64,000 nucleotides of DNA from Psammoneis japonica. Taxonomy: Eukaryota. Shown here one piece after another: positions 24,918-64,000 of this stretch; position 1 is the first letter of the stretch, and every line of letters starts with the position of its first letter. Both the position numbers and the translations under genes were made by a program. The stretch spans positions 64,517 through 128,516 of the forward strand of contig QPGO01000075.1 in NCBI GenBank assembly GCA_008632985.1, in the 5' to 3' direction. The notes under the pieces are model-generated. The model was given only the letters and a program-made list of their open reading frames with translations. It was not told the DNA's origin and searched no databases.

Positions 24918-25384
24918 NNNNNNNNNNNNNNNNNNNNNNNNNNNNNNNNNNNNNNNNNNNNNNNNNNNNNNNNNNNNNNNNNNNNNNNNNNNNNNNNNNN
25001 NNNNNNNNNNNNNNNNNNNNNNNNNNNNNNNNNNNNNNNNNNNNNNNNNNNNNNNNNNNNNNNNNNNNNNNNNNNNNNNNNNNNNNNNNNNNNNNNNNNN
25101 NNNNNNNNNNNNNNNNNNNNNNNNNNNNNNNNNNNNNNNNNNNNNNNNNNNNNNNNNNNNNNNNNNNNNNNNNNNNNNNNNNNNNNNNNNNNNNNNNNNN
25201 NNNNNNNNNNNNNNNNNNNNNNNNNNNNNNNNNNNNNNNNNNNNNNNNNNNNNNNNNNNNNNNNNNNNNNNNNNNNNNNNNNNNNNNNNNNNNNNNNNNN
25301 NNNNNNNNNNNNNNNNNNNNNNNNNNNNNNNNNNNNNNNNNNNNNNNNNNNNNNNNNNNNNNNNNNNNNNNNNNNNNNNNNNNN
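24918..25384. other. Assembly gap (N run)
   Basis: Run of n characters. Confidence 1.
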
Positions 25385-25772
25385 TACATTCGAAAAATTG
25401 AAAATTCAAAAAGTTGCGACGCACAACGCACATGCACACCATGACGCCAGAAGATAGACGACGCATTCACCGCACCTCCCACACACCATGGCACGACAGT
25501 TTACCGAAATCATTATAAGTGGTCGATATGATCGAAACGACCATGAATTTGATAAATAAAGGCGATGTATGGGAATGAATCGAAGGACAGGATGGTTTGT
25601 AATTATTGGCGATCACCACGTCACAATTTTCCGATGAAAGTGCAAAAACCCCACGAACGCGAATCTTTTAGATCGATATCAACTCGCATTGATGGGTCTT
25701 GCGTTGCTTTTCGATCGTTGTTCAACAATTTACATGAAACTTCACCAGGATAAACCTAAACCTGCTGCTGCC

Positions 25773-28041: not shown

Positions 28042-30813
28042 ATGGAATCGTTGTTGATGAGTGGTGACAATGGCGGAGGAATGGATCTCAATATTGTTGT
28101 GGAGAAACCGACAGCTTTAGCAACAAATAAGCCCCGCAAGCCCAAGAAACGCAACAAGTATGAGAAACGACGGGAGAAGGCACGTCGTGCACGAGAAGCG
28201 GCAGAACAAAATGAAACAATACAAATACTAACGAAAAGGAAGAGACGACTGAATTAGTTCCTTCTTTGCTAAATGATGCTGCTCAGAACGGCATTGTCCG
28301 AGGAAGAGACACACACGTCGATGATGATAAAACAACATCAGAAATTGTTCCGACCAGCGACACTCTATCGACAAGCCGACGTCGTCACGACGGAAAGAGT
28401 CTAGACACTGTCCAAAATCGAGCAAAGTACATGGCAGAGTTCCATGCTCGACCTCTGGAAATGGATCGTCGGAGTGGCGCAGTGTCGACCTTTGCGCGTT
28501 CCAAAGATTCCCAGCACATTTTTGATGATGCGTGTAACAACGAGAGTGATTCAACGACGACTCCGTGGTCCCATTTAAAGCTACAACCCCGAGTCGAATC
28601 TACTCTTGTGGGGCATTTCAAGCTGAGCAAGGGGCCCACGGTTGTCCAGAGCCGTTCAATCACGTCACTGACACATCAGAGTAGGCATAACTTGTTTGTT
28701 CAGAGTGAAACAGGAAGCGGGAAGACCCTAGCATACCTCGTCCCAATTCTTCAGGTAAGCAAGCTGTGTGTAGTCGTGTATGGAGTACCTCCATGACGAA
28801 TCTTTATACATTATGGTTAAGACATGAACTGTGCTCGGAACGGAGATCGTCGAATGGTATGGTTGAGCCACCGCGTCTTTTTTGAGATGTACGGTTGGCA
28901 CCTGTGCTTTGGTGACCTTGTTTCGAGTGCTTGATTACAAACTATTGTTTTGGAGAGGCCAATGTGTTCATTTGCATACCATTATCAATACTGAGGCATG
29001 GGCTTGCTCACTCTGCGTTGTTGTAATTCTTTAGAGTTTAGCCGTTGACAGCCAATCGGGTCAAGTGAAGCGCATTGATCGAAGCAAGGGGGGGACACGG
29101 TGCATTATTTTGTGTCCCACCCGAGAGCTTGCGTCACAGACAGCTTCAGTGGCAGAGCAGTTGTGCCGGTACTCGTATTCCTGGATTGTGTCTGGTTGCT
29201 TGTCTGGAGGCGAACGTCGTAAAAGTGAAAAGGCTAGAATACGCAAGGGTATTACAATTTTGATTGCTACACCGGGGCGCCTACTGGATCATTTGGGCAA
29301 GACGGAATCGTTGCTAATGGCACTCAAGGGAAAATTGGAATGGCTGGTTTTGGATGAAGCCGATAGACTGTTGGATATGGGACTTGGATCACAAGTGGAA
29401 CAGGTTGTGCAGCACGTCCGGGCAAATCAACCAAAAAGTGGTATCAATAAAGACGGTGTCACGTGGAGGAGTGTATTGGTGTCTGCGACAGTCACCAAGA
29501 GTGTGCAGGACTTGGCACAAACAATGCTAGGAGGAGACGAATGGAAATGGGCAAGAGGGGTCAAGGACGATAGGGTGGTCAAGGCGATTTCTGACGCGCA
29601 GGATGAAGCACAAGAAGAGAATGAGTTGACATTGGAGGATTCTACACCTCGGCAGTTGAAACAACTTCACATGACGGTAAACGCCAAGCTTCGACTAGCT
29701 GCACTTGTGGCGTTTTTGGTCCAGCGAGTCAAAAACAAGGAACGTACTGTTGTCTTCTTCTCCACTTGCGACAGTGTCGACTATCATCATGCTTTGTTCG
29801 AAAAGACGGATTCGCTTTTGGATGTAGCAGAGGATGACACGGATAGTGACAATCCAGTAGGCTTGTTTGGAAAGGCTTGTCAGGTTCACAAGATTCACGG
29901 TAGCGTTCGGCATTCGCAGAGACAGCAGATTTTGAGCAATTTCGCGTCCGCGCCAACCGCCGCTGTCTTGTTGGCGACTGATGTTGCCGCACGCGGTTTG
30001 AACCTGCCTGGTGTCGATTGGATTGTTCAGTACGACGCGCCCAGCGAGGTGGCAGATTACATTCATCGTGCTGGCAGAGCTGCGAGAGCCGGTCGTGCGG
30101 GTCACTCGCTATTGTTCTTGTTGCCATCGGAACGCGCATTCTTGAATGTATTGGAAGCCAAAGGACTAAAGGACATGACAGCTTTGTCTTTAGCATCCAC
30201 TCTGAATGGCGCTGCTGATATTTGCAAGGATACTTGTGAGTTGGGCGGCAATTCAAAGAACCAATCGAGACTCGGCGAAGCGTTTGGAACTTTTGTACAA
30301 AGGCGGTTAGAAGATGTTTTGGCGGAAGACGACGCCCGTCACCAAGAGGAGCAGAAAGCGCTTTTGGCTAAGAAGAAGAAACGCACCGCTGCCAAGCCCA
30401 AGAAATCGTCTGGTCCACTTTTGGAGATGGCTACCAAGGCATATTTTTCTTTCGTCCGGGCCTATCCCACAAAAGAAAAGGTTATACGTCACATATTCTC
30501 TGCTCGGGCCATTCATTTGGGACACATTGCGAGATCTTTTGCCCTCAAGGAACCTCCAAAGTCCCTTGCCGTGCGTGACAAACAAAGTGGTAAAAGCAAG
30601 GATGATGATTCTCAAAATCTGAAACGAAATGCATCTCTTGCCTTCCAAGAAACGTCTGACACGAATAAGAAAGCAAAGATGACCACATCAGAGGCTAATC
30701 GCAAGGAGTTACCCTCGAGTACAATGGATGATCGAATGAATCCAAAGCGTGCCCGTAGCATGCTTCTTGCCCGGGCTGCTCAGTTGCAAGGCGGTGGAAT
30801 GGACGCTTTCTAG
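28042..30813 (+). CDS. DBP7: DEAD-box RNA helicase DBP7/DDX31-like; intron at about 28755-29033; apparent frameshift at about 28240
   Basis: SETGSGKT, PTRELA, GGERRKSEKARIRKGITILIATPGRLLDHL, DEAD, SAT, HRAGRAAR and HLGHIARSFALKEPP motifs. Confidence 0.9.
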
Positions 30814-31237
30814 ACTAGAAGTTGCTGAATAGTATTTCACCTTGCAATGCTTAGCTTATAAATTAGGAGCTTCCTACCGTCGACTATGTACCTCGCAAGT
30901 AGTAGCTAAGCACTCTCATGAAAGACGACTTCGAGGTTGATGCCATCGGGGTCAAGAACATCAGAGGCTTATCGCAAGGAGTTACCCTCGAGTACAATGG
31001 ATGATCGAATGGATCCAAAGCGTGCCCGAAGCATGTTTCTTGCCCGGGCTGCTCAGTTGCAAGGCGGTGGAATGGACGCTTTCTAGACTAGAAGTTGCTG
31101 AATAGTATTTCACCTTGCAATGCTTAGCTTATAAATTAGTAGCTTCCTACCGTCGACTATGTACCTCGCAAGTAGTAGTCTTCTAAGCACTCTCATGAAA
31201 GACGACTTCAAGGTTGATGCCATCGGGGTCAAGAACA
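30685..31237 (+). repeat. Near-identical tandem duplication (about 273-bp period) of two convergent gene 3' ends
   Basis: 30685-30957 is repeated at 30958-31237 with about 6 substitutions and a 4-bp indel. Confidence 0.92.
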
Positions 31238-31705: not shown

Positions 31706-32124
31706 GTTGTTGCCAATAAGATGTACACTCTGACATCTGAGCAGTCAAATGAATTTGTTCTTCTGGAGCGAAGAAAGCATTTCCAGGAGTTCCTTACTGT
31801 TCCAATCAATCTTCAATCACTTACGTACTCACTGCTTCCCTCTTCAAGAGAAGAAAACGGGCGTCCGCCAATGAGAATGTAACTGAGTGAGTCAGCATCT
31901 ATCGGGCGGTTGTCAGTTGTCACGGAATCGACAAACTATGGCGCGGAGGACGTTGCGCGCGCGAGCAAACGAGAACGGTTGTACGTATGTCTGTGGAATT
32001 GGGTGTCAACGGAGAGACGAATGACATATTATGCCTTGCGCGCAGGTGCCCCCGCGCGAACGTCGATTTTTTTCTGCAGTCGCTCCGCTCACCGCAACGC
32101 ACAAAAAAGCACAAAAACGACGCC

Positions 32125-34031
32125 ATGACAAACAAACTCAGTCGAATGAGAGCCGGCGGCGGCTCGTCGTACTCCCACGCCCCTCAGGCAATGGCTCCAA
32201 GTCACCATGATGATGTTGTGTCACAAGATTCATCAACAGTGTCTCCAGAGCGGGACCCACCAAGAGAAAGGACCGAAGTTCCAACGCGCGCCGAAACCAA
32301 GCCGACACCACCATCAATCCCTGTACCCGATCATATTCCTGCACTACCTCAGAAGCCACTGCTGCCTCCAAAACAGAGTGAGCTTTACAAGAAGGACTTG
32401 TCGGGTGCTGTCACAAAGCCAAGGGGAAAGAAGGTTGCCCCCCACACAAATGCAGTCGTGCTGGCGAACGAGCGCATTGAAAAATTGGAGAAGACTTTGG
32501 CAGAAAAGCACAACAGCCATGGACACTTGGAGGCAGCAGCGGCCACATCTGTTGATTCCATGTGTGACAATGTGAAGTCCATGCACAGCAGTCTTGTCAA
32601 GATGGCCCAGTCAAAGGCAGCGCTTCAAAACAAGTTCTGCGAAATTCAGAGCGCAAAGAATGCCGCGGTTGAGCAGTCGCGACGAGACAAGAAGGAGCTG
32701 GAGAGCATGGAAAAGGATTTGAAGAGAAAGAACAAGCAAATCAAGTCATTGAAACAGCAGCTTGTGGCAGCCAAAGAATCCAACAGGAAGAACAATGGCT
32801 CCAGCGACAATGCCTCGCAGGACGACGTGCATGAAAAGAAGAAACAAGCGAGCCTGTCACGTGTCGAAGAATTCAGGGTGAAAGAGCAAATCAAAGTTGA
32901 TTCGAAAAAGCAGGAGAAGAAGAATGCTTTAGATGCAAAGAAGGAACGCATGCAATCACTGCATGCTTCCAATGGGCAGTTCGTTGTGAGCATCACATCA
33001 TTGCTTTGTGCGTTCGTGCATCTTTCGTGTCTTTCATTTCTTTTTGATTTCTTTGACTCCACTCACTGGCCTTTTCTCTTCTTCCTCAAAAAGCTTGGTT
33101 CCGGGTGTCCAATGCCACATGGTCAGAGGCAGTCTGATGATTCCCATTGCCAAGAACAAACAAGGCGTCGTGGTCGTTCCCGCAATCGACGCCACAGCAG
33201 CAGTCATCGTGGTCATTCAAGAGGACACGGGAGCAGAGGCCGCAGCCGCTCTTGCCACAGTCCAAGCTCCAGCGATGGTGAGAGTGACTGCAGTGATTCC
33301 CATTGCTGCCACAATCGTTCTCGCTCTCGCCGCCGTCGCAGTCGCTCTCACCACCGTCGCAGCATCTCTCGCCGCGGTGAGAGAGCACTCGCGCCAGTGA
33401 CAGGGAGCACAGTCGCTCTGACAGCATCTCTCGCCGCGGCGAGAGTGCTCGCACCAGTGACAGGGAGCACAGTCGCTCTGACAGTGTCTCTCGCCGCGGT
33501 GAGAGCACTTGCGCCAGTGACAGGGAGCACAGTCACTCTGACAGTGTCTCTCGCCGCGGTGAGAGTGCTCGCGCCAGTGACAGGGAGTGCAGTCACTCTG
33601 ACAGCATCTCTCACCGCAATCAAAGTTGGTCTGGCCGAAGCATGGGTGACCAAGAAGAGAGGCGCTGTGTCACTGCTTCTAGTGGCTACAAAGACGATCG
33701 CCACTGCAACCAAAACCAACCTCCCAGCTCCTCCTCCCATGATCGTTGCAGCTCCCATGGACATGATGGAGGGCATGATGGAGGATGTGAGGAAGAGCCC
33801 GTGCATTCTGATGAAAACAGCATGCAGGAGAAGGAGAACTGCCATCCTGATGGCAAGGAGAATTCCTTTCAAAATGGCGTGGGGCCACATTCCTTCCCTG
33901 GTCCTCCAAAGAATCATCCTGCATTGACTGCACCATCCTTCTCATTGTCCAACGAGTCTGAAAGTTTGCAAGTCTACGAGGATGTTGCTTTGAACAATGC
34001 TTCTGTTGGACGTGAAGGCATGGATGTTTGA
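32125..34031 (+). pseudogene. Transposon-borne accessory ORF: coiled coil plus Arg/Ser-rich repeats; probable intron at about 32986-33093 and a 2-bp frameshift at about 33380
   Basis: Lys/Glu heptad region, then RSRSRRRRSRS and 20-aa repeats that continue in the 33642-34031 frame; Cys/His at positions where Tyr is plausible. Confidence 0.65.
33361..33617 (+). repeat. 60-bp tandem repeat, about 4.3 copies
   Basis: AG(CA/TG)TCTCTCGCCGCGGTGAGAG(CA/TG)CTCGCGCCAGTGACAGGGAG(CA/TG)CAGTCGCTCTGAC. Confidence 0.95.
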
Positions 34032-34084
34032 AGACGAATTTCTGCAGAACTCCTGCGTGAACCACTTGATGCTTTTGAAACCAA

Positions 34085-34459
34085 TCAAGACTCTCTGTGC
34101 TGGTGACCATGTTTGCATCTTGTCACCATTGCACTGTTCAGGTGTGTCAATCTAGATCCAACTCCGTCAGTTGTGGATCTGTCACTAAAAATCGCATCGT
34201 CCCTTGTGCTTTCTCGTGTGACAGTGCTCCGCAAAAAGTTAGTTTCATGTTCAAACACCCGGCACCATGAACAATGCGTGCCTGCTCTGTTCTCGCAAGA
34301 CATTGTTTTAAAGGACAGGAAACTGACAATGCTCACATCTTGCGTATTTTGTGGCTCTCGCCGGGGTAAAAGTCTAACTGCCGCATTTTTCGGATCAACA
34401 ATTTGAATCGAATGGATCCAATCTCGTAACGGCAAAGCAGCATCAATTTTTAGAGACAT
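34085..34459 (-). pseudogene. Possible third small ORF inside the transposon
   Basis: AAAAATG start (MSLKIDAALPLRDWIH...), about 124 codons, no recognised domain. Confidence 0.3.
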
Positions 34460-34767
34460 TTTTTGCGGGAAAACGCGTGTGTTTCCCTGGCATGGCAAGT
34501 CCCGGGTTTTCCACCAGCCGTCAGCCGTTGAACGGAAAGATCCAATGACCATTGATCATTGCTCAGAGGTTTTAGTCAGGATGTCAATGACTGTTCACCC
34601 TTCAAATGACATGTCCAACGGTTGGAGTTACATTGGCGTTTTCAAAAACCAGGGATTCAGTCCCGGGGTTCTGGCGCCCAGACATGCCTCTAGGGCCTGG
34701 AAGTTTCAACTGCATTTCAGTCCATTGTAGGTCATTCTACAGTGGAGCATTCTACAACAGAATGAGC

Positions 34768-35889
34768 TCAAGACACACATCCACATGCTCTGTGCATGCA
34801 GAAGACTTGGTCATGCACAATTTGGGACAACACGTCATGGGCAGCACAGGCGGTGGAATGCTCGGTGTGCGAGCGGAGCCTGCGGATCGGATGGCACTTG
34901 AGCTGTGTCACAAGTTGACACCACACAAGTTCTGCAGGGTTCCATTCAGGGGTCCTCGTTGGAAGAAACAAAACAAATGTGCCACACTCTGTCCACAGCC
35001 ATTCTTCAAGAACCGCATTTTCACCATGCACGTGGCAGGCTGCATTGTCTAGAACAAGGATGTCACCACCTCTGAGAAAGCCCCGATGCACTGCATGCTC
35101 AATCTCCATTGCAAACTGTTCCACATCATTCGGCTCATTGTGGATCCGGCAATGCACTGGGTGGGTCCTTGTGTCGATGCCGCAAAAGCCGATGACGGGG
35201 CATGTGTTGCGAAAATCAGAGGATGTGAAGGATGGCGGGACTTCCCCTGTTAGTGCATTTCGCCTTGTCCTTCGGCAATGCACTTCTGAACCTTTCAGCA
35301 GCTTCTCATCTCCGCATTTGACCCTCCACGGATCAACCTCGGCGACAACCATTGTGAACTCGCGTGCTCGTAGGATGTTGTCGGGTTTGAATTTGTCACA
35401 GGGAATGAGATTTGGCTTGCGAAGTTTCCCGCTGATTGGAAATGCATGATTCCAGAATCTGCTGATGGCAGCATTCGAAACCACTGCTCCTGTGAGGTTG
35501 CACAGATTCTCCCGACAGTTGGACAGCAAGCGACTTGGCTCGTCCAGATGTGGAATCAGAAGGACAAAAGCATCTAGACTGTCAATTGTGTTGACGCCTG
35601 GACCACACATTCGTTTCTGGTGAATCTTTCGCGGGTGAAGCACTTGGCCGCAACAGTCAAGTTCTCGCTCCACTTTGACCACAAATTTGCGGTCAACCCT
35701 GCAAACCCGAGCGACTTCTGTCAGATTCGGCCTGCCACTCTCTGACGTGTCTTGTGGTGATTGATGGACCCTCTGAACTTCGATCTTCTTCTTGATGCCA
35801 CATGCCCTCCCACGTTCATACGTTCCACCATTGTCATTGACAGCAAGTCCGCACTGGGCTGCAGTGGCGCAATCGATGTTGTTGGCCAT
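34768..35889 (-). pseudogene. IS630/Tc1-like DDE transposase (DD38E spacing), frame open but hypermutated
   Basis: GDEK...LVLDNAACH...LFLPTRTPEWNPAELVW; N-terminal HTH-like region; 1 Tyr versus about 23 Cys in 373 aa. Confidence 0.9.
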
Positions 35890-36591
35890 TTTGTTTTTTC
35901 ACGACACAATGTCTCGTCTACTTACAGCCTGCTCAAGCCACACAATGTCCCGTGTAATGCTGAATCATCAGAATAGATGGGTGCGACTGCAAGGGAGGAA
36001 CATGGAGATGCGACAAAGAATGAATTGCACAGAAAAGTGCAGCATTTCGGTGACATCCAAGCACAACAAATCCTGGTAGATTTCTCGAGTGTCTCTTCAA
36101 ATCTTCACAAGACCTTCAAGTGATATAATCTTAGGGACTAGTATAGCGTTTCCGACTGGTCAAACTATCACGATAATCGTCCAATTACTTACAATCAACG
36201 ACAAGATGCCATCCGGAGTCGTTTTTCGGGTTTTTTTTAGCGAGCGCGTGTCGGAGGGAGTCGAAAAAATTCTTGTGTGTCCGCGCGGGGGCACCTGCGC
36301 GCAAGGCATAATACGGTGCTTTACCGTAAAAGTCTCGTACGTAGAAAGATTACCATGTCTTCAACAATGTACGTGGTGGACATCGACAGCTCACAAAATT
36401 GCCGCCAACACGCATTTCATCGAATCCAATTTGGAAATTCAGCACAGGCTCTGCGTGTGTAGTTCGAACGTCTTTACGTTGTGTCGTGGTCTCTATCGTC
36501 AACTAGTGTCATCTACCATACGTGTGAAGAGATCATATACGAAGAAAGAAGCAATTGTTGCCTTAGCGTTGAAAAAATCGAACAAGAAAAC

Positions 36592-39249: not shown

Positions 39250-39900
39250 CCCATCAATTCCTCGCAATCGATGTCACTGTACCACAAGCTCCCCCGCCTC
39301 CTGCACCTGGTTTGCCCGTCCCTGAAAACCCACTCAACAAGGCTCACCTCAGCAGCACTCGGGACAAGCTCCTCGGCCGCTCTGCATCCTCTTCTCATGG
39401 TTCTGACGTCATTGACGCCATTGACCAAGCAGGCCTCTTCCTCCTCCCTTCTTTTACCTTCGACCACCTCGGAGGCATTGGGTGTCACTTCCATGTCTTC
39501 TTCTTTGGCGCCTCCACCACCACCTCCTCCTCCGTCCCACCCCTTCCTCCCAAACCACCCTGGTCAAGCCCATCCTCCTTGCCCAACTCACAAGCATCCT
39601 TCTCCGCCTTCACCAACTCCCTTTTGGCTCCTTCCAACCTCCTCGCCCAATCCAACGCGGCCTGGAAACAACTTTCACCCAACCACTTTGGCTCCTCCTG
39701 TCATGCAGCAACACCCCCACTCTGGGCCTCCCAAATCCTCAGTCTCAATTTCGGCTTTGCTCTTTCCAACCGCCTTTCTACATTTTAAGCTTTCCTCCTC
39801 CGCCACCCCACTGTCACCAACTCCTCCTCACAACCATCTGTCGCACCCTCGGCCAACCCTTTTTCTCTCCCTCGCCAAGCGCGACCACCTGTTTCCCCAC
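39250..39900 (+). mobile_element. 3' fragment of an RLE-type (CRE/R2-like) non-LTR retrotransposon
   Basis: FLAIDVTV...RDKL...FLLPSFTFDHLGGIG resembles the restriction-like endonuclease C-terminus; strongly C-rich sense strand; no RT upstream, so 5'-truncated. Confidence 0.6.
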
Positions 39901-41095
39901 CACGACAACTGCCAACCCCACGGACATCACAGTTGGTGAAAACAAAGTGACAGTGATTGAGAAATTTAGCAATGGTCATCACACAAACAAAATCTCTCAG
40001 AAATTCTTTCGTGCTCATTTTTTGCTCACAACTCGTCATCTCACATGATGTGTTTGTTGTTTGCCAAGCAGGGATGCAGGCGATCGCCCAGGATGGCTCG
40101 CCCTTCTTATGGACAATGGAAAGTCTTCTCTTGTTTGGCAATTGCACAACTCATTTAGCTTGATGGCGTGTTGTCTCCAGGTGGCACAGGTGTTGCCAGT
40201 CAAGTCCGGAGGTCGGGGCAAATCAAGTGCGTGTCTCCGGCCCAGAGCCCACATCATTCCTGTGTCTTTGACCGCAGGAAGTTGCCTGTTTGCTTGACCC
40301 GTCAGGTCACGGCTGTTGAAATGGACAGCAGCGTTCATCTGCAAAGCAGCAAAAGCTTGCCAAGCAGATCATGCCATTGACGGAATGTGGGGTTTGGGGT
40401 TCCGTCGCATCAGCGACATGATGCGGCAAGTCTTCACTCACAGGGGAGTGTTGATTTGGCACGCGGTTGACTCGCAAGTCATCTTGTTGTCTCTGCAGCA
40501 CATCCCCCCTTTTGCATTTTTTAGAGTGATGCTTCACTCTGAAGATGCACAAAAGCTTGAGATCCATCTTTTTTGATGGCGCTCTTGAGGCATCATTGCC
40601 CTGCATGACCAATTTCCACATCAACTTTTGACATTTCTGTGTTTCAAATTTTCGAAACGCGCTTTGAACCTTTGCAACAGATGTGGAAATGCCAAAAGCA
40701 AGACATGACAATCTTCGTTGGCATGCCATTCATTCTGCACATGCGTCAATGGACTGCGATGGCAGTGCTTGCAATGTCGTTGCACAGCTCCTTGCCTGGG
40801 GTCCATGATGGGGTGTTCGTTGCGGTGTGAAGGCTTGTCATCGACATGTGGTGGACTGTTCGGTGCTGCTTGCCTGCAGCACTGCATGGGCAAGCTGTTC
40901 CTCCATGATTGCACTTGCAAGATCACGGTGGACTGACAAAGTGCAAATTCGGACAACTGGGTGCTGTCCGAACAACAGCTGTTGGCACCTGCTCTTGAGG
41001 AAAAGACAAAAGCAATTAATCGAACCCCACAGACATCAAAATGAATCTAATTCCAGGTTTCCATGCCAACGGTTCCAAGTCTGATGAGCAATGCA

Positions 41096-44070
41096 TCATG
41101 ATTGCTGTGCATGTGCCAGCTTTTCTCCATTTTTCTGGGTGTCATCTCCAGTTGACAAGGCACTGGGAGTGGTGACCATTGGCAAGTTTTTGCCGCTTCC
41201 TTCATTGCCCCCGTTTCCTTCCTCCTCTGTGCCTTCTCCATCATCAATCTCCACATGGAAATCACTGTTCAGTGCAACACCCAGTTCAACATCCCCCACC
41301 TTGTGAAGCAAAGGTTGGCAGTTGTCTGGGTGGACCTCGTTCTTTGCCTTTAAAGTCGGCTGCAGGCACTGATTGGTGATGAACAAAAAATCATCCTGGC
41401 CTTCAGCTTGATTCTTGAGATTGACCTGCAACAAGCACTCCTCTCCTGCAGGCAGAAATTCTGCAACCTGCTTGTGTCTCTGCAAATGTTAAAAAGAACG
41501 TTTGCATCAACAGCGGAAGCACGAGGGGGGCAGCCCATCCCTTTCTTTTGAGCCCAAGTGCACCCAGGAGGGTCAGCTGTCCAATGATGGTTTGTGCTTT
41601 GACATTCCCATGAAAGTGATTCAATTCTGCTGCCCATGCCTGGCTTTGCTGGGCAGTTGCAAAAGCACTTGTGCCTCCAACACAAGCACAAGATTCCAAA
41701 GCAAAACATGAGAAACCAGTTAAAGAGAGGCACCATTGACAAACAGACAAAGAACACCTTTGTGTGGAGTGTGGAGTGCGTTTGCAGAGGCAACTTCGGC
41801 ATGTGGAAGCCTGAGAGGGTTGCACAGTGGACACAAAAAGCCATGCGACCTGCGAGAAGACTCCTCCTTGGCAAGGTCAGGGCCATGACAGCATTGCAGG
41901 GCTGCCTTGAAGAGTGGCAAGAAACAAAGCATTTCGACAGTCAAGCCAACAAAGGTCTTTGCCAACAAAAGCTGCACAAAATGGGTTGACTGCCCCGGAA
42001 GGGACGTCGCCAAGAAATCAATTTGCTTGCAGGGTCACAGACAATGTTTTGAACTTCAGCCCAAATCCCTCCTGATGCAGCAGACACAAAGAAAGTTTGA
42101 ATGATCAAAAAAGAACAAGTTTTGGGAGCTGTTGGGCAACCTGTGCAGCCTGTGAAAGCGGAAATTCCACAAGCACAATCCACTCAAGCAGGGTGGGCAA
42201 TGAAAAATTGAGTGGAACGAGAAGGAGCGGAGCAAGACTTTTGAAGAAGGTGGAGAGCCATGGTTGCTTCTCCAATGAATTGGCAAGCCATGACATCTCC
42301 TGTGTGAGAGATTCAATGTTGCTCAAGGATGAAACAAATGCTGTTGGAATTGTCTGTGATGATTGAAGGGCTGCTGTCAGTGCAATGGCAAGGAGCCCGC
42401 CAGTCTGCAACTTGTGAGAGCTCCTTCCATCGTTTCTGTGAAACACATTTTCTGGATCGGGTGCATCGTGCGCATCCATGCTGAATGGTGTTGAATGATG
42501 AATCCCCTGCAATGCAGATTGCTTGGAATGAAGGTTCTTGAAACAGACAAAACCGGCATCCCGTGGCGACCCTTCCTCTTCTCCCCACACCAATGCCAAC
42601 ACGCTTGTTGCGCTGTTGTAATTCCCTCTTTTGCCTTCTTTGCAAGTTTCTTGCTCAACGTTGCACCCAGCTTGGCACCCTTCTGAAGAGAGTGGGTGAC
42701 GGATTCAGAAAAATGCGACACTGATGTCTGCAGCTTGTCCACAACGTTCCTCTTCAAGCCGCCCAATCTAAAAACTGGAGGTGTTGCTTTCTTTTCCACT
42801 GCAGCCTTCTCTGATTCTGCTGTTTTGTGAGCATCCACAACATTTTCTCCCTTTTTGACCTTTGGCAAGCTTTCTGTCTCAGCGCCTTTGCTTGTTGTTT
42901 CCTTCTCCTCTTGATCATGCTCCAATTGTAAAGTTTCTTGAGTGTCCATGAAAATGTCTTCCTGTGCTGACACCTGGTCTGTTGCATCTGGGTTGGTCTG
43001 GTGCACGCCCAATCCTGTTGATGACTCGTCTGCTTCTGCAATGTTGCAGCCATTCACGAGCACCCTTTTTGAGTGCTGCATCATGTTGAAGCTTCAAACA
43101 CTCAATGACACAGACGTCTTCTGCAATTCACTGGTTTGAGTGGGTGATTCCTCCACCGCTGCAGAATGGCCTCCTTTGTTTGCTTTCGTCACACCCTTGG
43201 TTTGTTCAATGTTGGTCAAATGCTCAAGTTTTCTGATGAGAGCCTGCCATTTGTTGACCTTGGCTTCCAACTTTGGAATTCTTAGAGCCACATGCATATC
43301 TGGCACACCATCTGTGAATGACAGCAAAAAGCATTTTAACACAGCATCCGATCAATGGCACAATCTGGAATGCCTGAATGCACATGGCACAATTTCGTGG
43401 CTCACGCTCCAACTGAAAGGCATGTCAGTGGGTCAAAAACCATTTGAACTCTTGCAAGACAAAGCACATTGTAAATCCAAAGACAATTTGGGTCGACAGT
43501 GAACAGCAGAAATGAGATGATCCGATCCTGGAGGAACATGTGCAGAGGATGATCTCACAACTGAGTCAAGCTGCACATTTTCTGGAGTGGCACGGCATGC
43601 CACAGATTGGAAAGAGCCAGATGGAATTGAACATTCCCGCCAAGAAAATCTTCGTCCAAAAGATGAACATGCAATCCAAACATGCCGAGTCCATGCCGCA
43701 TTGCTCCCAAATCTCCGTTGAGCTTGCTCGTTGAACCTTCCAAACCACGACACAAAACCACAGGTTGACGCTTCCACAATTTCAACACGGCCATTCTTTG
43801 GGACAAAGATTTGTTAGACAGCATTGAGCCAAGCAATCTCTGCATCCTTGGCTTCTGCGAAGGAGTCCCAGCTGAAGGTTCCTGGTTCCGCATCTTCCCA
43901 CCCCCATCCGCACCTGGACAGCGACTTGCAAGAACAAAGATTTTTTTACACCACCTGTGTTGACACACCATGACAAAGAGAAATGCCTCATGAGCAAATG
44001 CGAAGCCTCCAAACAACCTTTCCAGGCAAGCTGTGCTCACTGTCCGCTGATGGCAGACAGTGACCAGCAA
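41096..44070 (-). pseudogene. Decayed OSCA/CSC1/TMEM63 (ERD4-like) channel gene
   Basis: Collinear fragments across frames: EQCGMDS..GMFNSIWLFPI; VALRIPKLEAKV..RKLEH; AGFVCFKNL..QSALQ..APDPENVF; TIPTAFVSSLSNIESL; ATSLPGQSTHFVQ; GPDLAKEE; PLFNWFLMFCF..RHK; QCLQPTL. Confidence 0.85.
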
Positions 44071-46059
44071 AAGCCATCATCATCTTCTGTCGGCAACGCA
44101 CCTTGATCTCAAACAGTCGCTGCAGTTGCATGAATGCCACTGTGGCACAAAGCAAACAGAGTGCGTGGCTGCAGAAAAAAGGCCTGCACACAACCGTCCT
44201 TTGGCCCCAGCACACCTCTTGCACAGGACTGAAGCTTTGATTGTTCTGGAAAAGGGCCTTTCACTGGAAAATGGAGTTTTGAACCATCTTACATTGCAAG
44301 ATGAGGGACAAAACTGCAGCAAGATTGTGTGTGCTCTTGAATGTCTTGGGCACACAAATCTGGACACAACACCCAACATGCAATCGCTGCATGCTTTTCT
44401 TGCATTCCTGCAAGGTGCGCTGGAGAAGACCCCCCACCAAGGCTTCCAACTGTCCAAACTCAAGGGCGGCCCTCTTGACAAGAGCTCTCTGGTCCTCAGC
44501 ATGTCATGTGACAAACCTTGCATGTTGAGTTTCTCCCAATTAAAAAAAGTCTGTCGATCCCTGCGGAACCACTTGATGACAGTGTTGCGCGTTTGTGGGG
44601 AGCTCACTTGAGAAGAGTCCAATGAACTGTGGAACATCACTCAAAGAGTTGCAATGATGCACAGCCAGGTGTTTGATCATGACCAACGGCGCCACTGGGG
44701 CAGACAAGACAGCATCCATCAGAGCTGTGCACTGGTGCATCATGGTGATGGCAGCACGAATGCGCCGATGCCGCGTGCTGCAAAAACGATGATGACATCA
44801 CGATTTTTTGGTGGGAAAGTTGGCCTCAAAGCAAGTGCGCTGCATGGCACATCTTTCAGGAGGACAAAATCTTGCAGCCAAGAATCATGGCATGGCAATG
44901 AGCCATCAAAGCTGCTGCGGCAAAAAGGTGGCATGCGCTGCTGCCAATGGAGAACACTGTTGGTGACATGCTCTGGCACCAGGGAGATGAGAGTCACATT
45001 GCTGTGCCTGCTGCTCAGGAGAGATCATGCACTGCTGATGCCACATGCTGCCACAGGCAGAGCAAATGGCAGCCATTGTGCCAGATCTTGCCAAAATGAG
45101 AGGAGCAAAGAAGCAATGTGGCAGTTGAGGCCAGCAGACATTGGTTGGCAGGTTTCTTCCATGTGAGACTCTTGTTCTTGAAGAGGGGTTTGACAAGGAC
45201 TTTTTCTGCTGCCCCTTGCTGCCTGCTGCCAGGATGACAGGTTGCACCATTTTGGTCTTCTCAACTTGGAGGAGATGGGAGAAGCTCAATGCTGTGTGTC
45301 CCCATCTCATCAAGAAACCAAACTCACCAAGAAGCACTCTTAGGGGGGGGAAGGGGGGGGGGGGGGCAGATGAGCTGAGGACAGTGGTTGTTGTGAGCAC
45401 AAATCCTCACCATGCTTTGCCATTGCAAGACTCTCATGAAGGCAAAGTGTGTTGCTTTTGCTGTTGGACCTGAGCCCATCCACTCCACTGTCTGTGTTGG
45501 ACCTGAGTCCCCTCCCATGCATGTGTGCTGGCTTTCCTTTGTCTGCCATGTGAAAAGGGTGTTTCTTGACCCAGATGTTGTTGAGTCATGCGCCAGCAGT
45601 CATGCCATGAAAAATGGCATCAAAATGCCCACAAGCACATGTTTGTCATGACCCTTCAAACAATGGCAACATTTGACAGAAGCAAGCAGATGCTGACCCA
45701 ACTCACCTCTTGTTGCACTGGGTGATCATGCCCATCTTGGTCACATTTCATTTGCCTGTTGACTTTGTTTGATGACTCCACTCTCTGTGGCAGCTGGGGG
45801 TCACATGCAAGCACAGCCCATGCTCATCACCTTGGGCAGGCCAAGTGATGAATCCTGCCAAAGTCAGAGCCTTTGGTCAGTGCTGCTGGAAATTGTCTCG
45901 CTGTTTGTTTCAATGAACTTCCCAAGCTGTTTGACAAGGCCAAGTTTGAGAAATGTTTTTGTGTTGTCACACAAACCTGCATGGGCAACAAGTGTTCACC
46001 CTGTTCCTGGAAAGACAGTGAGACAAACACAACAGCCATTTGCGCCAAATTGAGAAATC

Positions 46060-46735
46060 AAATCTTCCAAGTCTCTTTCCCCAGACACCAGGCAACACAA
46101 CCCTGCAACTGTCCGCTGCAGCTCTCAAAGTGTTGCCTGGCACTCATCAAAATTCCCAGAGCCTTTTCAGCCTGCAGGTGGGGCCGGTTTTGGCTGGTGG
46201 GCTCCACTTTGATCTCCAGCACCACAGGTGGCATCAAATTTCAAGTCCCCTCCCACAGACAAGAAGCAGGCTACAAAGTGGCTGTTGGGACAAGAGACCA
46301 ACCCTGGAGCTGTCCCCCACCACAGTTCTCAAGTTTTGCATGTGCTGGCACCCAACAAATGCCCCAAGAGCCTTCAGCCTGCATTTGTTGCTTTGGCTTT
46401 TGGGTCCCAACCAATTTGACCTCCAGCACCACAGCACCAGCACCAAATTTTAAGTGTCTCCTCTCACAAAGACAAGCAGGAGGTGTGGCAAGCGGCTGTG
46501 CAGACAAGAGATGATGTTAAATCTGCAGCTGTCTGTTGCAGCTCTTGAAGTGTTGTGCCTGGCACTTGCCCTCTGATGTCCCAAAAGGTTTCAGCCTGCA
46601 GTTGTTTGGCTGGTGGGTCTTGCTCTGACCTCTGGCACCACAACCAACATCAAATTTCAAGTTTCTTCCCACAGACAAAGCAGCAGGCAGCAAAGTGCTG
46701 GCTGCAAGGGCAAGAGATTGACCACGCAGCTGCCT
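46060..46735 (+). repeat. Diverged tandem repeat of about 205-210 bp (about 3 copies; a further related copy at about 47200)
   Basis: CAAATTT(C/T)AAGT at about 46235, 46444 and 46651, each followed by ...GCAGG...GGCTG...CAAGAGA; related CAAATTTCAGGT...GTGGCTGCATGGGCAAGAGA at about 47207. Confidence 0.75.
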
Positions 46736-46762
46736 GACATGGCGCTTCTTGAAGCATCTCCT

Positions 46763-47022
46763 GGCCTGTTCAGGCTCCAGGTGATCTGCTTTTCATCACG
46801 CGAGAGGCCGATTTTCTGCGCAGTTTAGCGCAATTGACTCCTTCAATTTTGATCGTTTTGAAAATCGAAAGGTGAGTGTACACCCGAAAACACATGCAAA
46901 GTGTGCACTTGCCCTTCGATTTGGCAAAAAACGGATTTGGAAAAAGCCAATTGCGCCCAATGCACAAATTTCCAGATGATGGGAATCGAACCCGCGCGGA
47001 GCACCTGGAGCTGGAACAGGCC
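46763..47022. repeat. Imperfect inverted repeat of about 260 bp, CpG-retaining
   Basis: GGCCTGTTCAGGCTCCAGGTG...GCGCAATTG...AAATCGAAAGGTGAGTGTACAC pairs with GTGTGCACTTGCCCTTCGATTT...CAATTGCGC...CACCTGGAGCTGGAACAGGCC. Confidence 0.8.
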
Positions 47023-47969
47023 TCCTGGCACCCACCAAAGAGCACCCTCAGCCAGAGCTTTTCTGCAGCTGTTGCTCCAACACAGCTCTGAAACAAGCAC
47101 TGCCTGGCACCCACCACCACAAATGCACCAAGTGCCTTCAGTTTCCCACACAGTTGTTTGGCTTGTGCACATGGCCCATTTTGACCTGCAACAGCTTTGC
47201 CTGCACCAAATTTCAGGTCTTTTTTTCTCGTGGTTCAAGTGGGCAACAAGTGGCTGCATGGGCAAGAGAGCAGCAACCCTGCAGCCAGTTGTCAACTTTT
47301 GCCTGGTGCCCACCAAATCACCCTTGGAGACTTCAACAAAAAGCTGGGCCATTTTTGCCACACTGTGTTTGCACAGCCAATTTTGTCATGTGCAGGCTTT
47401 GCGACATTTCTCACAAAGGATGGCACAACTGACATGGCGGGACATCTGAAAATGACTCTGGATCTTTCTCTGTCAGTGTCCCCAGCCCTGTGGATGCTGC
47501 GCCCAGTCATGTGGCACTCTGGCGACCTCACCTCCCACTCTCCTGCACTCCCCAATGATTCAAAATGCTCTTGTCTCCACCCAAAAGTGGGGACTTTGAC
47601 TTCCTGGTTTGATGATCTTAAATTGCGTGTGCTGTTGAGGCACCCACAATTGCAGATTGTTTGATTTCTGTTCAAGCTGTGATGGGTGGCAGGCAGCGGC
47701 AGCTCGGATGATGTTTTGATGCCACACTTGGCTGGATGGACTGTGATGGTTGACGGCACACCATTGGCAGATTGCGCTGCAAATGACACCATGTTGCCAG
47801 TGCTCCAGTGCTGGCTAGATTGGGGTGCTTTGCATGAATTGTTTTGACCTCTGCAACAAATGTCTGGCTTCTCAGCTGCATGTCTGTCTGGTGCTTCTGT
47901 TGTTGTTCATTGGGTCAAAGGTCACCAAGATTGCACAGCACCCCCCAAATCTCTTTCTCTTCAAGCTGA

Positions 47970-50690
47970 GCCAAGTGCTCATGATGATGAGTTTGCTGCT
48001 GATGGATGCCAAGGCCAAGGTCTGTTTTCTGGCAACACCTCTCTGGCTCCTTGTGAGCCACACTGCACTGCAAACTTGGTCATTTGGGGCTGCTCTGTTG
48101 CTTCCACATGCAAGTCACTCCCGCAACATGAAGCTTCCATTCCAGCTCTTTGACTGCAGCACATGATGGGCAACAAGTGTGGCTGGTCAGATGAGCTGCT
48201 CACCTTGATTGATTGGACAATGCACTCCAAGTTGATGTCTTGTGATGTTTGCCACAAAGTCAGCACAGTCAAGCTGGTGTGTGAGGCTTGCCACCCACGA
48301 ACAAGACAGCCAATTGCTGCAACCCACCACTCACCCAGCCAGATTGTTGTACCTGTTGTGAGCATCCCATGGAGCACTGGGATTGTGCTCTTCATTGTCC
48401 TCACAACAAAGCCTGGCACAGGAAGTTTGTTCTCCAAGGAACACACAAAAAGTGCAGCAATGTTGATGTCTCCTCACCCTCCAAGCATGACTTGCTCCAA
48501 CAGTCTGCTCTGTCCTGATGAGATTCTTTTGACAACATGAAAGCGGTTGCCAAGACAGTGTGAGTTGGTGGCATCTTTTTCTTGATGGCCGCTTTTCTTC
48601 TGTGGTGCAAAACTTGGGCATCACACTTGCTGATCAGTGGATTGCATTGCAACCAGAATTCAGGGGAGTCAATGATTGGGTTCGGCAGCAACAACCTGTG
48701 CTTTTGTTTGGTCTCAGCAGCAGGAGCTGGGGGGCTCAGTGCATGGCAATTGCTCTCATGGCCACAACTTTGTCAACCAGGAAGTCAGCTCAGTGACACA
48801 AAGGATGATGAGGTGCACTTGTTTGGCTCATTTGAGAAACATCTTGCTCACTCCATGCACACATGGACTGTGCAGCTGGTTGGCTGCAGTGAAACCCATG
48901 TTCAACAGGTTGACTCAATGTTTTGCCACTGGGCAAATGGAGCCACATCAGAGGCTGCAACATGGGGATTTTTGCTTTCCTCCTTCACAAGCTTTGCATC
49001 TTTTGTTGTCACAAATGTTTGCAAATGAAAAGATCAAAATCCCAGTGACAGCAGTTGATGCAATGTGTTTGCATTTGACATTTCCATTTCAGTCTCAATT
49101 GACTTTTCTGAAAACTGATTGATGCAAACATGTTTGTTTTTGACAATGATTTTAATTGTCACCAAGTTTTTGTGGTGCACCTTTTTGCTTTTCATTGGAT
49201 TTTTGCAGTTGAACTTGGTTTTGACTTTGTTTCTCCCACTCATGTGCCTGTGTTGTTGGCATGTGCAGCACGTGCTTCCCTGCGCTGCGCTGCACCTTGT
49301 TGCCCCTGCAAGCTCAAGTGGCCACCACACACCCCAATGCATGTTTCCCTCTTGCTTTCTCAGTGTTGCGTGCCACATCCTCCCGTTGTGTGATTTTTTC
49401 AGCATTTTGCGATTAAATTTTTACACATTTCATGACAGCACACCCTCTCCCCAAATGCCAAAAGAAGAGCATGTGCTGCGGTTGTGATTCACATGCATTT
49501 GACATGATGCCACCAACCGACAACAGGCCATGGTGGCGAATGACTTTGCCCTGTCAGCTGACAAGGTCAGCCCCAATTCCTTGTTTGTCCTCTTTGATGA
49601 CAATGTTGATTTTGACAACATTGAACATTTTGCTTGTGGTTTTGGCATGGAGTTGTTTGGACAAAAGTTCAAAAGCACAGCAGCTGCAACATGTGCCTCC
49701 TCCAAAAAGCAGCTTGTGGAGCAAACAAATTGGGCACCATCTCTGGAATTCCTTGCACTTCCCTTCCTTTGCTGACAGAAAAACAAGCTGAGGAAATGCT
49801 TGGGCAGATGCAGGGTGCTGCAAGCCTGTCCAAAGGAAGACACCAATGTAAAAAATGAGGCAAAAAGAATGAGGAAGCTGAGCCAATTGAAGAACCATTC
49901 ACGCCAACTTGGGAGGGCAAGACTGTGGAAACCACTGTGGTGGGTGAAAAACTGACCAACAAGGAAGCGCATGTGTGGTTTTGCAACAATGTGCTGAAAT
50001 TCTCCAAGAGCACTGCAGCATGGAGCACAGCCAACTGCAGCAAGCAACAAAGATCCAAGCTGTTGGCACCAGAAAACTGCTGGAAAACAATGAATCACAA
50101 GGCAGCAAATGAGCAAAAGTTTTGACAGGGAGATGAAGACAAGGACAAGAAGGGAGAGAGCTGGAAACCACCAGCGCCAATGCACACAAACCCTGAGCAT
50201 CTTGTGATTCATGGGGAGATGCAGGAACAGAGTGACTCAATGAGCTGCAGCTCATGCAGATGAGCTTGCCGGTGGATGCCAAGGTCTGTTTTCTTCAAGC
50301 GACACCTCTTTGGCTCCCTTGTGAGCCACACTGCTCCATGAACTTGGTCATTTGGTGTGCTGCTCTGTTGCTTCCACATGCAAGTCAGTCCTGCAACATG
50401 AAAGAGCTTCCAGCGCCCAGCTCTTTGACTGCACATGTGATGGGTCACAAGCATGTGGCTGCTGGCTGGGTGAACCACTCACCTCATTTGATTGGACAGT
50501 GCACTCCAAGTTGTTGACATGCACAGCTGTGACACCCTGCTCACCCAGCCAGATTGTTGCACCCATTGTGAGCATTGCATGGAGGGCTGGGGCTGTGTTC
50601 TTCATTGTCCTCACACAACAAAGCTCGGCACACACAGGAAGTTTGTTCTCCAATGGCTGCACAAGAAGTGTGACGACATTGCTGTCAATG
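47970..50690 (+). repeat. Dispersed direct repeat pair (about 47970-48470 and 50240-50690)
   Basis: Shared CCAAGGTCTGTTTTCT, TTGTGAGCCACACTGC, GCTGCTCTGTTGCTTCCACATGCAAGTCA, TCACCCAGCCAGATTGTTG and ACAGGAAGTTTGTTCTCCAA. Confidence 0.85.
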
Positions 50691-51191
50691 CACCAAATGC
50701 AGGATTGAATTGGGTGGAGGATGGATGGGCAAGCAAAGGAGGGATGATGACAGATGACGATGACGTGATTGTTTCGTTTGTGTTCTTTCATTGCCAGCTG
50801 CTTTGTTCGAACGTGTTGCTGGCCTGGCATCACAGTCAGGTGGCAGCACCAATCTTGGCCAGTTGCCATGGAGTTGCAGGATGGAAGTACAGCAGCACTT
50901 TAAAAACACAGATGTTAGGTTTTGTTCTGTGTTTGCCCACCTTTCCTCTCAACTGATATTGTGTCTGTGTCTCCGAATTGTTTTAGATTCCACGGCCAGA
51001 TTGCATTGGGCGGAAGGACGGACGGGCAAAGTACAGAAGGTATGATGACAGACGACGATGACGTGATTATTTTTTGATTTGTGTTCTTTCATTTTTTTTG
51101 CCGTGTCGCCTTGAGTGTGAAACGTGTGTACCACAGGGCTTACTGTTGTTTCTGTTGTTCCTGCTGTAGTTCTTATCAGCACAAACGAGAT

Positions 51192-63200: not shown

Positions 63201-64000
63201 GAAAGTGCGGACAATTCAATCCCGATGCGAAAGAGAGGCGTCCGCCAAAGGATAAGAATATCGCACCGACAGAGGGCGTTTCTTTGTGGGATGCTGCGGG
63301 ACGCACTTTCAAGTCAGTCACGAAAGGCGCCGAAACTGCGCAAAGCACCGCTTGCAAGCCAAAGAGAGGGCGACCAAGCAAGAAGTGGGGTGCTGATGCC
63401 GCCATCAGTTCACAACTTAAGCCGAGAAGAGGGCGGCCGCCAAAGAATAAGAGTGCCCCATTGAACGAGGGTCCTCCACTGCAAGAAGCTATGGTGTACT
63501 TGCCTTAAGTCAGAAGAGAAAGGTTCGCAAAGTAGCGGTGTCAAACGAAAGAGGGGGAGACCTCGCAAATCGCGAATAGTGTCGGGACTGCATCGATGCC
63601 ACACGATTGCACGTTCGAAGAGGATAGAACACAAATGGACGGAGCTATCGTCAGCCTACAACCGAATCCGAGACGAGGGCGACCACCCAAAAATAAGAAC
63701 GCTGCGCCGGGGACACAAGGAACGAAAACTACTGTCGATTTAAACTCTAAGCCGAGAAGAGGGCGACCACCAAAAAACAAAAACACGCGTGAAGGAGGAT
63801 TATTCTTTGCAGGATGCTACGAGACGTCCTTCTTGCACGCTAGTCGAGAAAGATTCGCAAAGCACCGGCAGCAAGCCTAAGAGGGGGCGACCTCGCAAGA
63901 AGGTAAATGTGATTGCCCAAGTTAAACCAGTGGGAGACGATTGCATACCAGTTATGAGATAGCGCAGAGGGAAGAATTCGCAGTCAATCTTAAGCCGAAA
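60231..64000 (+). CDS. Very large multi-AT-hook protein, broken by many apparent frameshifts; continues beyond the window
   Basis: About 20 or more (K/R)RGRP(R/P)K-type motifs across successive + frames. Confidence 0.7.
61675..62150 (+). repeat. 60-bp coding tandem repeat (about 8 copies), one AT-hook per unit
   Basis: GCAAGGATGACGCCATTGCRCAGCCAAAGCGTAAAC(C/G)AGGGAG(A/G)CCGCGCAAGGT...; encodes SKDDAIAQPKRK(R/P)GRPRKV(E/Q)NT. Confidence 0.95.

Follow-up and report, generated by a model that had tools for sequence, protein, structure and literature searches.

Repeat-induced point mutation (RIP) of fungi makes TpA from CpA and TpG and creates stop codons. Hypermutation that consumes TpA has been recorded once before, for Bigelowiella natans in a 2026 preprint. 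In its main text, Mettrop et al. (bioRxiv 10.64898/2026.01.13.699255, April 2026) report TpA-restricted hypermutation of integrated nucleocytoplasmic large DNA virus (NCLDV) and virophage DNA: two regions of integrated viral DNA acquired 231 mutations in mutation-accumulation lines, of which 230 were A>G or T>C and the GC-biased ones all lay at TpA, and the de novo rate in these regions, about 1000 times that in the rest of the genome, was seen in some lineages only. The same text describes an excess of DDE endonuclease and reverse transcriptase domains among TpA-depleted coding sequences, and its authors propose a DNA adenine deaminase, naming an ADAT2 homologue as one candidate. Here we analysed a stretch of 64,000 nucleotides from Psammoneis japonica (contig QPGO01000075.1, positions 64,517 to 128,516 of the forward strand; hereafter the window, with coordinates counted from its first letter), in which the interior of a 4.3-kb Tc1/mariner-type DNA transposon (32029-36311) and two further blocks are nearly devoid of TpA. 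It is, in our judgment, quite probable that this locus has undergone real, in-genome hypermutation of TpA to TpG or CpA, locally targeted and of the same kind as in B. natans.

The locus resembles the B. natans case, as the main text of the preprint presents it, in that A:T>G:C changes fall at TpA alone, yield TpG or CpA on either strand, and are local, with the neighbouring host DNA untouched. In both, a lasting depletion of TpA is accompanied by enrichment of CpA and TpG, and DDE genes are among those affected in B. natans. Indeed, the marks of the B. natans process recur in the window: delimited regions, and Tyr replaced by Cys or His at 6 of 8 conserved positions in the transposase and at 5 of 6 in a pseudogene. 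On the other hand, B. natans is a chlorarachniophyte (Rhizaria), whereas the host of the window is a diatom-like stramenopile; the targets there are viral, whereas here a DNA transposon and a host-type pseudogene are hit, with no recognisable viral DNA; Rho is 0.45 in the NCLDV region, whereas depletion in the window is deeper, with observed-to-expected ratios (o/e) of 0.04-0.11; and mutations were measured in lines there, whereas the process in the window is known from its footprint in the sequence. Two features of the window stand beside those reported for B. natans, namely, decay of CpG within the same borders and a hierarchy of loss TAT>TAC>TAG>TAA. The words "diatom," "CpG," "context," and "trinucleotide" are absent from the main text of bioRxiv 10.64898/2026.01.13.699255, although a flank preference may be given in its Table S2. 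A first-pass annotation of this DNA had called the phenomenon undescribed, which does not hold, because measurements in B. natans have already documented TpA>TpG/CpA hypermutation of the same kind in integrated foreign DNA. The kind of process is already known; what is new here is that the host is diatom-like and that the targets include a cut-and-paste transposon and a host-type pseudogene, together with the near-saturation, the neighbour hierarchy, the CpG decay in the same borders, and the spared transposon ends. No description from a diatom was found in our literature searches, whose coverage of subscription journals was thin, so that absence is not proven; by term look-up, the accessible text of two papers on diatom transposons (PMC2806351 and bioRxiv 10.1101/2025.10.24.684338) does not mention hypermutation, RIP, or dinucleotides.

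Across the element as a whole, TpA o/e is 0.18, and it falls to 0.11 in the hypermutated interior (32391-35900), where CpG stands at 0.70, TG at 1.45, and CA at 1.55; the host flanks have TpA o/e values of 0.60 to 0.63. The interior holds 24 TA, compared with 107 to 173 (median, 139) in 586 overlapping host-like windows of 3,510 bp drawn from non-depleted sequence. One thousand mononucleotide shuffles gave a mean of 210 TA and a minimum of 180. The non-coding DNA of the element is depleted as well, the stretch 34032-34767 holding 15 TA. These values agree with the first-pass annotation, which had noted that TpA is nearly absent from the element while CpG is retained; it had, however, placed the depletion throughout the element, and this was not the case. 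The left subterminal part of about 360 bp (32029-32390) shows a milder effect (TpA o/e, 0.34; CpG, 1.09), whereas the right subterminal part of about 410 bp (35901-36311) is spared, with 17 TA, a TpA o/e of 0.58, and a CpG o/e of 1.13, and still holds 8 TA in ATA/TAT contexts, the most sensitive class. This right part is repeated in the genome (depth, 417 to 500, versus 53 to 58 in the flanks), no less so than the interior, so that being repeated does not by itself decide where the footprint falls. Besides, the TA at 32334 and that at 35919-35920 have already been changed in most other copies of the element (32334 reads CA in most), which indicates that the border of depletion differs from copy to copy.

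The transposase open reading frame (ORF) of the element (34768-35889, minus strand) was identified by Pfam and by alignment with 12 homologues, of which the best is 63% identical and one comes from the diatom Thalassiosira exigua. Its 373 amino acids include 1 Tyr (0.3%) and 23 Cys (6.2%), as previously counted, whereas the homologues have 2.9 to 5.6% Tyr and 1.1 to 2.6% Cys. Eight columns of the alignment carry Tyr in at least 8 of the 12 homologues, and at these the window copy has Cys (TGT or TGC) in three, His (CAT or CAC) in three, Tyr in one, and Phe in one. The possibility that homologues natively have Cys or His at the odd sites, on which the first-pass annotation would have given up its proposal, is answered by these columns, where the homologues carry Tyr. 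Furthermore, conserved Leu and Ile columns are now CCA (Pro) and ACA (Thr), and changes at CpG have turned conserved Arg and Ala columns into CAA or CAG (Gln) and GTG (Val). Related transposase genes on metagenome contigs have TpA o/e values of 0.31 to 0.85 in 80 of 80 cases, against 0.077 in the window copy; thus, the depletion is not a trait of the family.

The same signature, stronger and joined by CpG loss, fills positions 1-2600 and 39400-50900. The first block (1-2600), which extends past the start of the window, has TpA, CpG, and TG/CA o/e values of 0.05, 0.15, and 1.88, respectively, and ends sharply near 2600, where TA per 200 bp rises from 0 to 19. In the 11.5-kb block (39400-50900), TpA o/e is 0.04 to 0.07 and TG/CA is 1.62 to 1.83, with CpG at 0.42 in 39400-44900 and at 0.17 in 44900-50900; at its right border, near 50900, TA per 200 bp increases from 0-2 to 5-8. 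Taken over the element interior and both blocks, TpA o/e is 0.04 to 0.11 and TG/CA is 1.50 to 1.88, and dinucleotides other than TpA, CpG, and TG/CA show far smaller shifts in the blocks. The right border of the large block cuts through a short duplication: the inner copy (50668-50925, plus strand) differs from its unmutated partner just outside the block (50966-51210) by CG>TG and TA>TG/CA changes, of which the outer copy, adjoining a gene that starts at 51192, is free.

A nearly full-length CSC1/OSCA-like pseudogene (RSN1_7TM and PHM7_cyt; 41320-43780, minus strand), broken into pieces, lies within the 39400-44900 part of the large block and provides a second protein outgroup. We compared window codons to which 30 or more of the 150 listed homologues align, with agreement among at least half of those aligned. 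None of six consensus Tyr residues is kept, their codons being TGT, TGC, TGT, TGC, CAT, and CAA (four Cys, one His, and one Gln), and only one of nine consensus Arg residues is kept, the listed changes being to Cys (three), His, Trp, and stop (one each); by comparison, control residues in the same pseudogene are largely intact (Pro, 16 of 17; Phe, 16 of 19). The process is therefore not limited to transposons, since a host-type channel pseudogene is also struck. With regard to the origin of the targets, the Tc1/mariner element is mobile, one block bears the host-type pseudogene, and the rest of the blocks has no Pfam match: among 29 stop-to-stop ORFs of the blocks, RSN1_7TM/PHM7_cyt was the one real match. 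A GF_recep_IV match was sub-threshold and Cys-rich, and we ascribed it to Cys enrichment. A transition-blind search in purine/pyrimidine code found no long terminal repeats or terminal inverted repeats (TIRs) flanking the blocks. A second DDE_3 copy at 41032-40868 (minus strand) was considered on the basis of weak colinear tblastn matches in 10 of 17 homologues (C-terminal motif region; E, 0.45 to 8.7) and was rejected, as the profile of the 12 homologues gave no support; a very degraded remnant at this place is possible but unproven. On the protein outgroups in two genes together with the depletion, the direction of change is TA>TG/CA.

The loss of TpA depends on its neighbours. Strand-symmetric tetranucleotide counts, compared with the expectation from 42.6 kb of host sequence and pooled over the element core (32350-35950) and the blocks, gave o/e values of 0.01 for ATAA, 0.02 for ATAC, 0.00 for ATAG, 0.02 for ATAT, 0.05 for GTAC, 0.09 for CTAC, 0.14 for CTAG, 0.15 for GTAA, 0.33 for CTAA, and 0.65 for TTAA. 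In the element core alone, the ATA/TAT classes were observed 2 times against 66.9 expected and GTAC 0 times against 11.6, while o/e was 0.33 for CTAC/GTAG, 0.28 for GTAA/TTAC, 0.54 for CTAA/TTAG, and 0.58 for CTAG. Sensitivity is thus graded by the base 3' of the A, in the order T>C>G>A, and TTAA is nearly immune. This bears on the rule of A>G in 5'-TAY-3' (Y, pyrimidine) put forward in the first-pass annotation: surviving sites are indeed enriched for YTAR (R, purine), but the rule is not strict, because TAC is lost far more slowly than TAT (about 0.3 is left in the element, which is younger than the blocks) and YTAR is eroded too. Its candidate of polymerase-eta-type WA>WG (W, A or T) error-prone repair also falls, as AA/TT is not depleted (o/e of 1.18 in the interior and up to 1.30 in mutated regions, against 1.14 in the host).

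CpG o/e is 0.70 in the element interior and 0.15 to 0.42 in the blocks, and CpG and TpA loss have common borders throughout. Among the CpG sites surviving in the blocks, GCGC is kept (0.72 to 0.89 of expectation) and TCGA is nearly gone (0.00 to 0.25). A single deaminase for 5'-T[A] and 5'-T[C]G, an idea suggested by the TCG preference of BjADAT2, is not claimed here: TCGA is the most eroded class and TC/GA is lowered, but loss extends to every CpG class other than GCGC. The blocks that are most mutated have a TC/GA o/e of 0.85 to 0.88 and an AA/TT o/e of 1.26 to 1.30; this fall and rise could reflect an extra 5'-TC>TT component or merely another starting composition.

Counts of TG and CA on a given strand are close to each other in the blocks (310/299, 543/570, and 708/668), and Tyr>Cys and Tyr>His are equally frequent in the transposase (three each), which implies that both strands are struck. 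This symmetry bears on the strongest rival, in which the thymine rather than the adenine of TpA is attacked: an enzyme, for instance one of TET/JBP type that hydroxylates it, would modify the T, which would then mispair with G at replication to give T>C. As TpA is self-complementary, the counts are explained equally by T>C in 5'-ATA and by A>G in 5'-TAT, and with TG nearly equal to CA, strand bias cannot separate the two. In dinoflagellate DNA, 5-hydroxymethyluracil occurs preferentially at TpA. We know of no modified thymine that mispairs efficiently enough for saturation, which counts against an attack on thymine. Nothing observed here supports it specifically, and adenine deamination is the explanation favoured in the main text of the B. 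natans preprint; we therefore regard thymine attack as improbable, though the most serious of the rivals.

Comparison of repeated sequences indicates that mutation came after duplication. Three repeat pairs inside the blocks differ by transitions at 57 of 74, 39 of 55, and 29 of 42 mismatches, and have 9, 8, and 4 sites at which one copy reads CA and the other TG; the 9 sites belong to the repeat 21-514/528-1003 in block 1-2600, and the 8 and 4 to repeats in 39400-50900. Four control repeat pairs outside the blocks have 1, 0, 1, and 0 such sites. Within the element, four 60-bp tandem units (33381-33620, plus strand), identical to one another in purine/pyrimidine code, show 13 variable columns, all of them transitions. 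Three sites alternate between CA and TG with no unit carrying TA or CG, and at five sites most units have CG and the others CA or TG. Such alternation is expected where one ancestral TA (or CG) is resolved independently in each copy, and because CpG sites are far from saturated in the element, TpA is the more likely ancestral state of those sites that are fully converted throughout the four units. An ordinary inverted repeat of about 610 bp with 73% identity (22474-23081/23927-24543), considered as a CpG/TpG-biased pair, was set aside: its CG/TG differences are symmetric (11 versus 11), both arms have normal composition, and it looks like an ordinary diverged paralogue pair.

Contigs from one sequencing run (run X1) extend this comparison to other copies of the element, which have about 3 to 20 times the depth of the flanks and show 412 differences from the window copy, 337 of them transitions. 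The 40 best-supported differing places correspond to 34 events, of which 27 are among TA, CG, TG, and CA, including 6 TG/CA swaps. The differences between copies are mostly transitions at pyrimidine-purine dinucleotides, an outcome in favour of the first-pass annotation, which would have given up its proposal had they not been enriched for A>G at TAY. Transitions and CA/TG alternation at the same site between paralogous copies argue that these copies were mutated independently, after duplication. Run X1 contigs also differ from the window at two places in the single-copy flanks, TA>CA at 31717 (310 bp left of the element) and CG>CA at 36739, each at the full depth of about 55. Variation between strains or alleles could explain them, as could leakage of the process into the flank. 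Among the listed sequencing runs, no RNA run contained the stretch.

The same comparisons bear on the idea that no mutator is needed and that the composition was inherited from a donor genome by horizontal transfer or arose by selection against UpA in transcripts. In its favour, TpA is low in most organisms (about 0.6 in the host DNA here), and the blocks include sequence of no recognisable origin. However, conserved Tyr residues have been replaced in two unrelated genes, to the damage of the proteins, while relatives of the transposase have ordinary TpA in 80 of 80 cases; copies in the genome differ by CA/TG alternation and mostly by transitions; and o/e values of 0.04 to 0.11 with sharp borders lie far under every host window and extend to non-coding parts. 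Composition or selection is accordingly a very unlikely explanation.

An artefact of sequencing or assembly, in which a modified base in silenced DNA is misread and TG/CA does not exist in the germline, is just as hard to maintain. The stretch was found in runs of one sample, possibly the assembly's own data, and a TpA doubly deaminated before replication would give CA and TG from reads of the two strands. Against this, run X1 contigs at a depth of about 55 join the unique flank to the element at both ends with the same sequence as in the window, so that these contigs do not show the TA that, in raw reads, the first-pass annotation had said would point to miscalled bases, though for a run of this origin the independence of the check is weak. 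A deaminated base would become a true G:C pair after one replication and could not persist as a mark. In addition, tandem units and block repeats carry fixed assembled differences, and the stop and frame breaks of the pseudogene speak for long-term decay.

To our knowledge, ADARs are confined to animals, which counts against the weakest rival, A-to-I editing of RNA followed by reverse transcription and re-insertion, as in edited animal retroelements. An A>G change with a 5' U/T preference resembles ADAR, a point made in the main text of bioRxiv 10.64898/2026.01.13.699255, and the depleted part of the element roughly equals its two convergent ORFs; yet TIRs and a TA duplication mark the element as a cut-and-paste DNA transposon, the strands are struck equally, tandem units at one locus differ, and the 11.5-kb block is depleted end to end, between ORFs too, all of which makes this route extremely improbable.

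Compared with better-known processes, the locus shares with fungal RIP dinucleotide-specific transitions that wreck mobile or duplicated DNA, independent mutation of copies, and sharp borders. It differs in direction, in that the window loses TpA and the transposase ORF stays open, and in scope, in that RIP mutates all long duplicated DNA, whereas at the right end of the element 410 bp of repeated DNA retain TpA and CpG at host-like levels. As a single-copy region is targeted in B. natans according to the main text of the preprint, recognition of repeats is not established. Functionally, RIP is the analogue of this process, in the opposite direction. Deamination of 5-methylcytosine would account for CpG>TpG/CpA in the blocks and for the Arg changes in the pseudogene (to Cys, His, Trp, and stop), but it cannot remove TpA, which is nearly gone from the element while CpG remains at 0.70; besides, the pattern of CpG decay, with GCGC spared and TCGA most eroded, fits no methyltransferase known to us. 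The natural tRNA substrate of ADAT2 has a U 5' of the target A. ADAT2 and TadA, including evolved TadA base editors, form an enzyme class able to deaminate A (and C) in DNA. In the part of the article available, amphioxus BjADAT2/3 deaminates both bases in DNA, and BjADAT2 prefers 5'-GAA for A, 5'-TCG for C, and hairpin loops (PMC10354150); these preferences, GAA and TCG, are not TpA.

The signature, its direction, its dependence on context, the independence between copies, and the sharp borders are features of this DNA, and they can be joined as follows. A Tc1/mariner-type element would have inserted at a TA in a diatom-like genome and would then have been copied. After insertion, a local mutation process would turn interior TpA into TpG or CpA, by A>G on either strand, with a 3'-neighbour preference of T>C>G>A by which ATAT-type sites would be erased and TTAA left nearly untouched. 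The same process at saturation would have produced blocks 1-2600 and 39400-50900, including the host-type channel pseudogene. A slower CpG>TpG/CpA decay in the same domains would represent 5-methylcytosine deamination in silenced chromatin; because TpA and CpG loss have common borders, one chromatin state, probably methylated and silenced, may direct both. In the element, the sensitive TpA classes have fallen to about 0.03 of expectation and CpG to about 0.7, which points to a separate TpA process that, if the starting composition was like that of the relatives, would be roughly ten times faster per site than CpG decay. A role in genome defence, aimed by a silencing mark in common with CpG methylation, seems plausible. 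As to chemistry, if the hypermutation is accepted, adenine deamination on DNA by a 5'-T-specific (TadA/ADAT2-like) deaminase is our leading inference, with an even chance of being correct, and a modified thymine that mispairs is an unlikely option, the remaining odds going to some other chemistry. The core of the first-pass proposal, a local A:T>G:C mutator acting on transposon or silenced DNA, is thus upheld by the outgroups in two genes, the 80 of 80 normal relatives, the CA/TG alternation, and the sharp borders, while its claim to be undescribed, its strict TAY rule, and its polymerase-eta candidate have been dropped.

Several points weigh against this account. At most sites the direction is deduced from the depletion and the protein outgroups. 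CA/TG alternation could also stem from ancestral CpG, although TpA is favoured as the source in the element, where CpG sites mostly keep CG in three of the four tandem units and alternating sites keep neither. The element ends are repeated yet spared, which simple targeting of whole repeats or whole inserts would not predict. Some of the depletion may come from a master copy that was already mutated and not from events at this locus. Run X1, if it is the assembly's own data, is weak as an independent check, yet it differs from the window at two flank sites. Finally, TpA is palindromic, so that attack on A and attack on T leave the same footprint and the sequence is blind to the enzyme.

In its anatomy, the element has all the marks of the Tc1/mariner superfamily: TIRs of 33 nt lie between the two copies of a duplicated TA target site, and its single transposase, of about 370 amino acids, is of the DDE_3 type, the ORF matching Pfam DDE_3 (PF13358; E, 7.7e-09) better than the curated cut-off. 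An inverted-repeat search found arms of 35 nt (32027-32061 and 36279-36313) that are 97% complementary and consist, on each side, of the TA duplication plus the TIR. The left TIR (32029-32061, plus strand) is preceded by the left TA duplication (32027-32028), and the right TIR (36279-36311, minus strand) is followed by TA at 36312-36313, so that a TA abuts the outer edge of both; a run X1 contig (36286-36800) enters the right TIR from the unique flank. The two TIRs match over their first 30 nt, with one A/G close to the inner end as the sole mismatch. Unlike typical members of the superfamily, the element is long (4.3 kb), its transposase lacks conserved residues, and it carries an extra frame without a known family. 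This second open frame (32125-33927, plus strand), convergent with the transposase, starts at an ATG inside the element (32125), has a coiled-coil-like N-terminal part followed by a part rich in Arg, Ser, His, and Cys, and had no match in Pfam; possibly it is not a single intact gene. A hidden Markov model profile of the 12 homologues found no second transposase copy in the window and matched 34768-35889 alone.

The genes that flank the element are of ordinary eukaryotic types, encoding helicases, TPR, S28 peptidase, SDR, and PPR proteins, and for the flanking DBP7-like helicase the matches with organism names are all from diatoms, at 47 to 53% identity, while the best of the other matches reach 56%; hence the term diatom-like for the host. 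A direct duplication of about 275 bp (30685-31237; 96 to 98% identity) with normal TpA lies immediately downstream of the helicase ORF, 800 bp from the left end of the element. The window also contains 467 N, an assembly gap at about 25000-25500, with odd composition in the 1-kb bin from 25001. Within long ORFs at its right end are 69-bp tandem repeats (six copies, 71 to 91% identical to the reference copy) and dispersed repeats of 67 to 75 bp (61602-62153 and 62559-63909), which are probably repetitive protein-coding sequence.

The finding has consequences for annotation. The transposase ORF is unbroken despite its lost Tyr residues because A>G and T>C never turn a sense codon into TAA, TAG, or TGA, and spurious ORFs appear on both strands because the loss of TA deletes TAA and TAG in all six frames; accordingly, we counted 22 ORFs of at least 80 amino acids over 5.3 kb at the element and 49 of at least 110 amino acids over 12 kb of the large block. 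Dead elements may therefore look intact, and an open frame in such DNA is not proof of a live gene. For the mechanism, the locus adds new constraints, namely, a preference graded by the 3' neighbour that leaves TTAA nearly immune, equal treatment of the strands, borders shared with CpG decay, and spared transposon ends. Some diatom species can be transformed and edited, and a diatom-like host belongs to a group in which tests of candidate deaminases would be feasible. The occurrence of TpA hypermutation in a second major lineage within the stramenopile-alveolate-rhizarian (SAR) group argues for an old or transferable system and not a one-off. We tentatively suggest, while giving it somewhat less than an even chance, that an old defence present at least across the SAR group also works in diatoms, in which a 5'-T-specific DNA adenine deaminase aimed at CpG-methylated, silenced domains would act on TAT over TAC, TAG, and TAA and would erase transposons and duplicated genes at about ten times the per-site rate of CpG decay, leaving their ORFs open.

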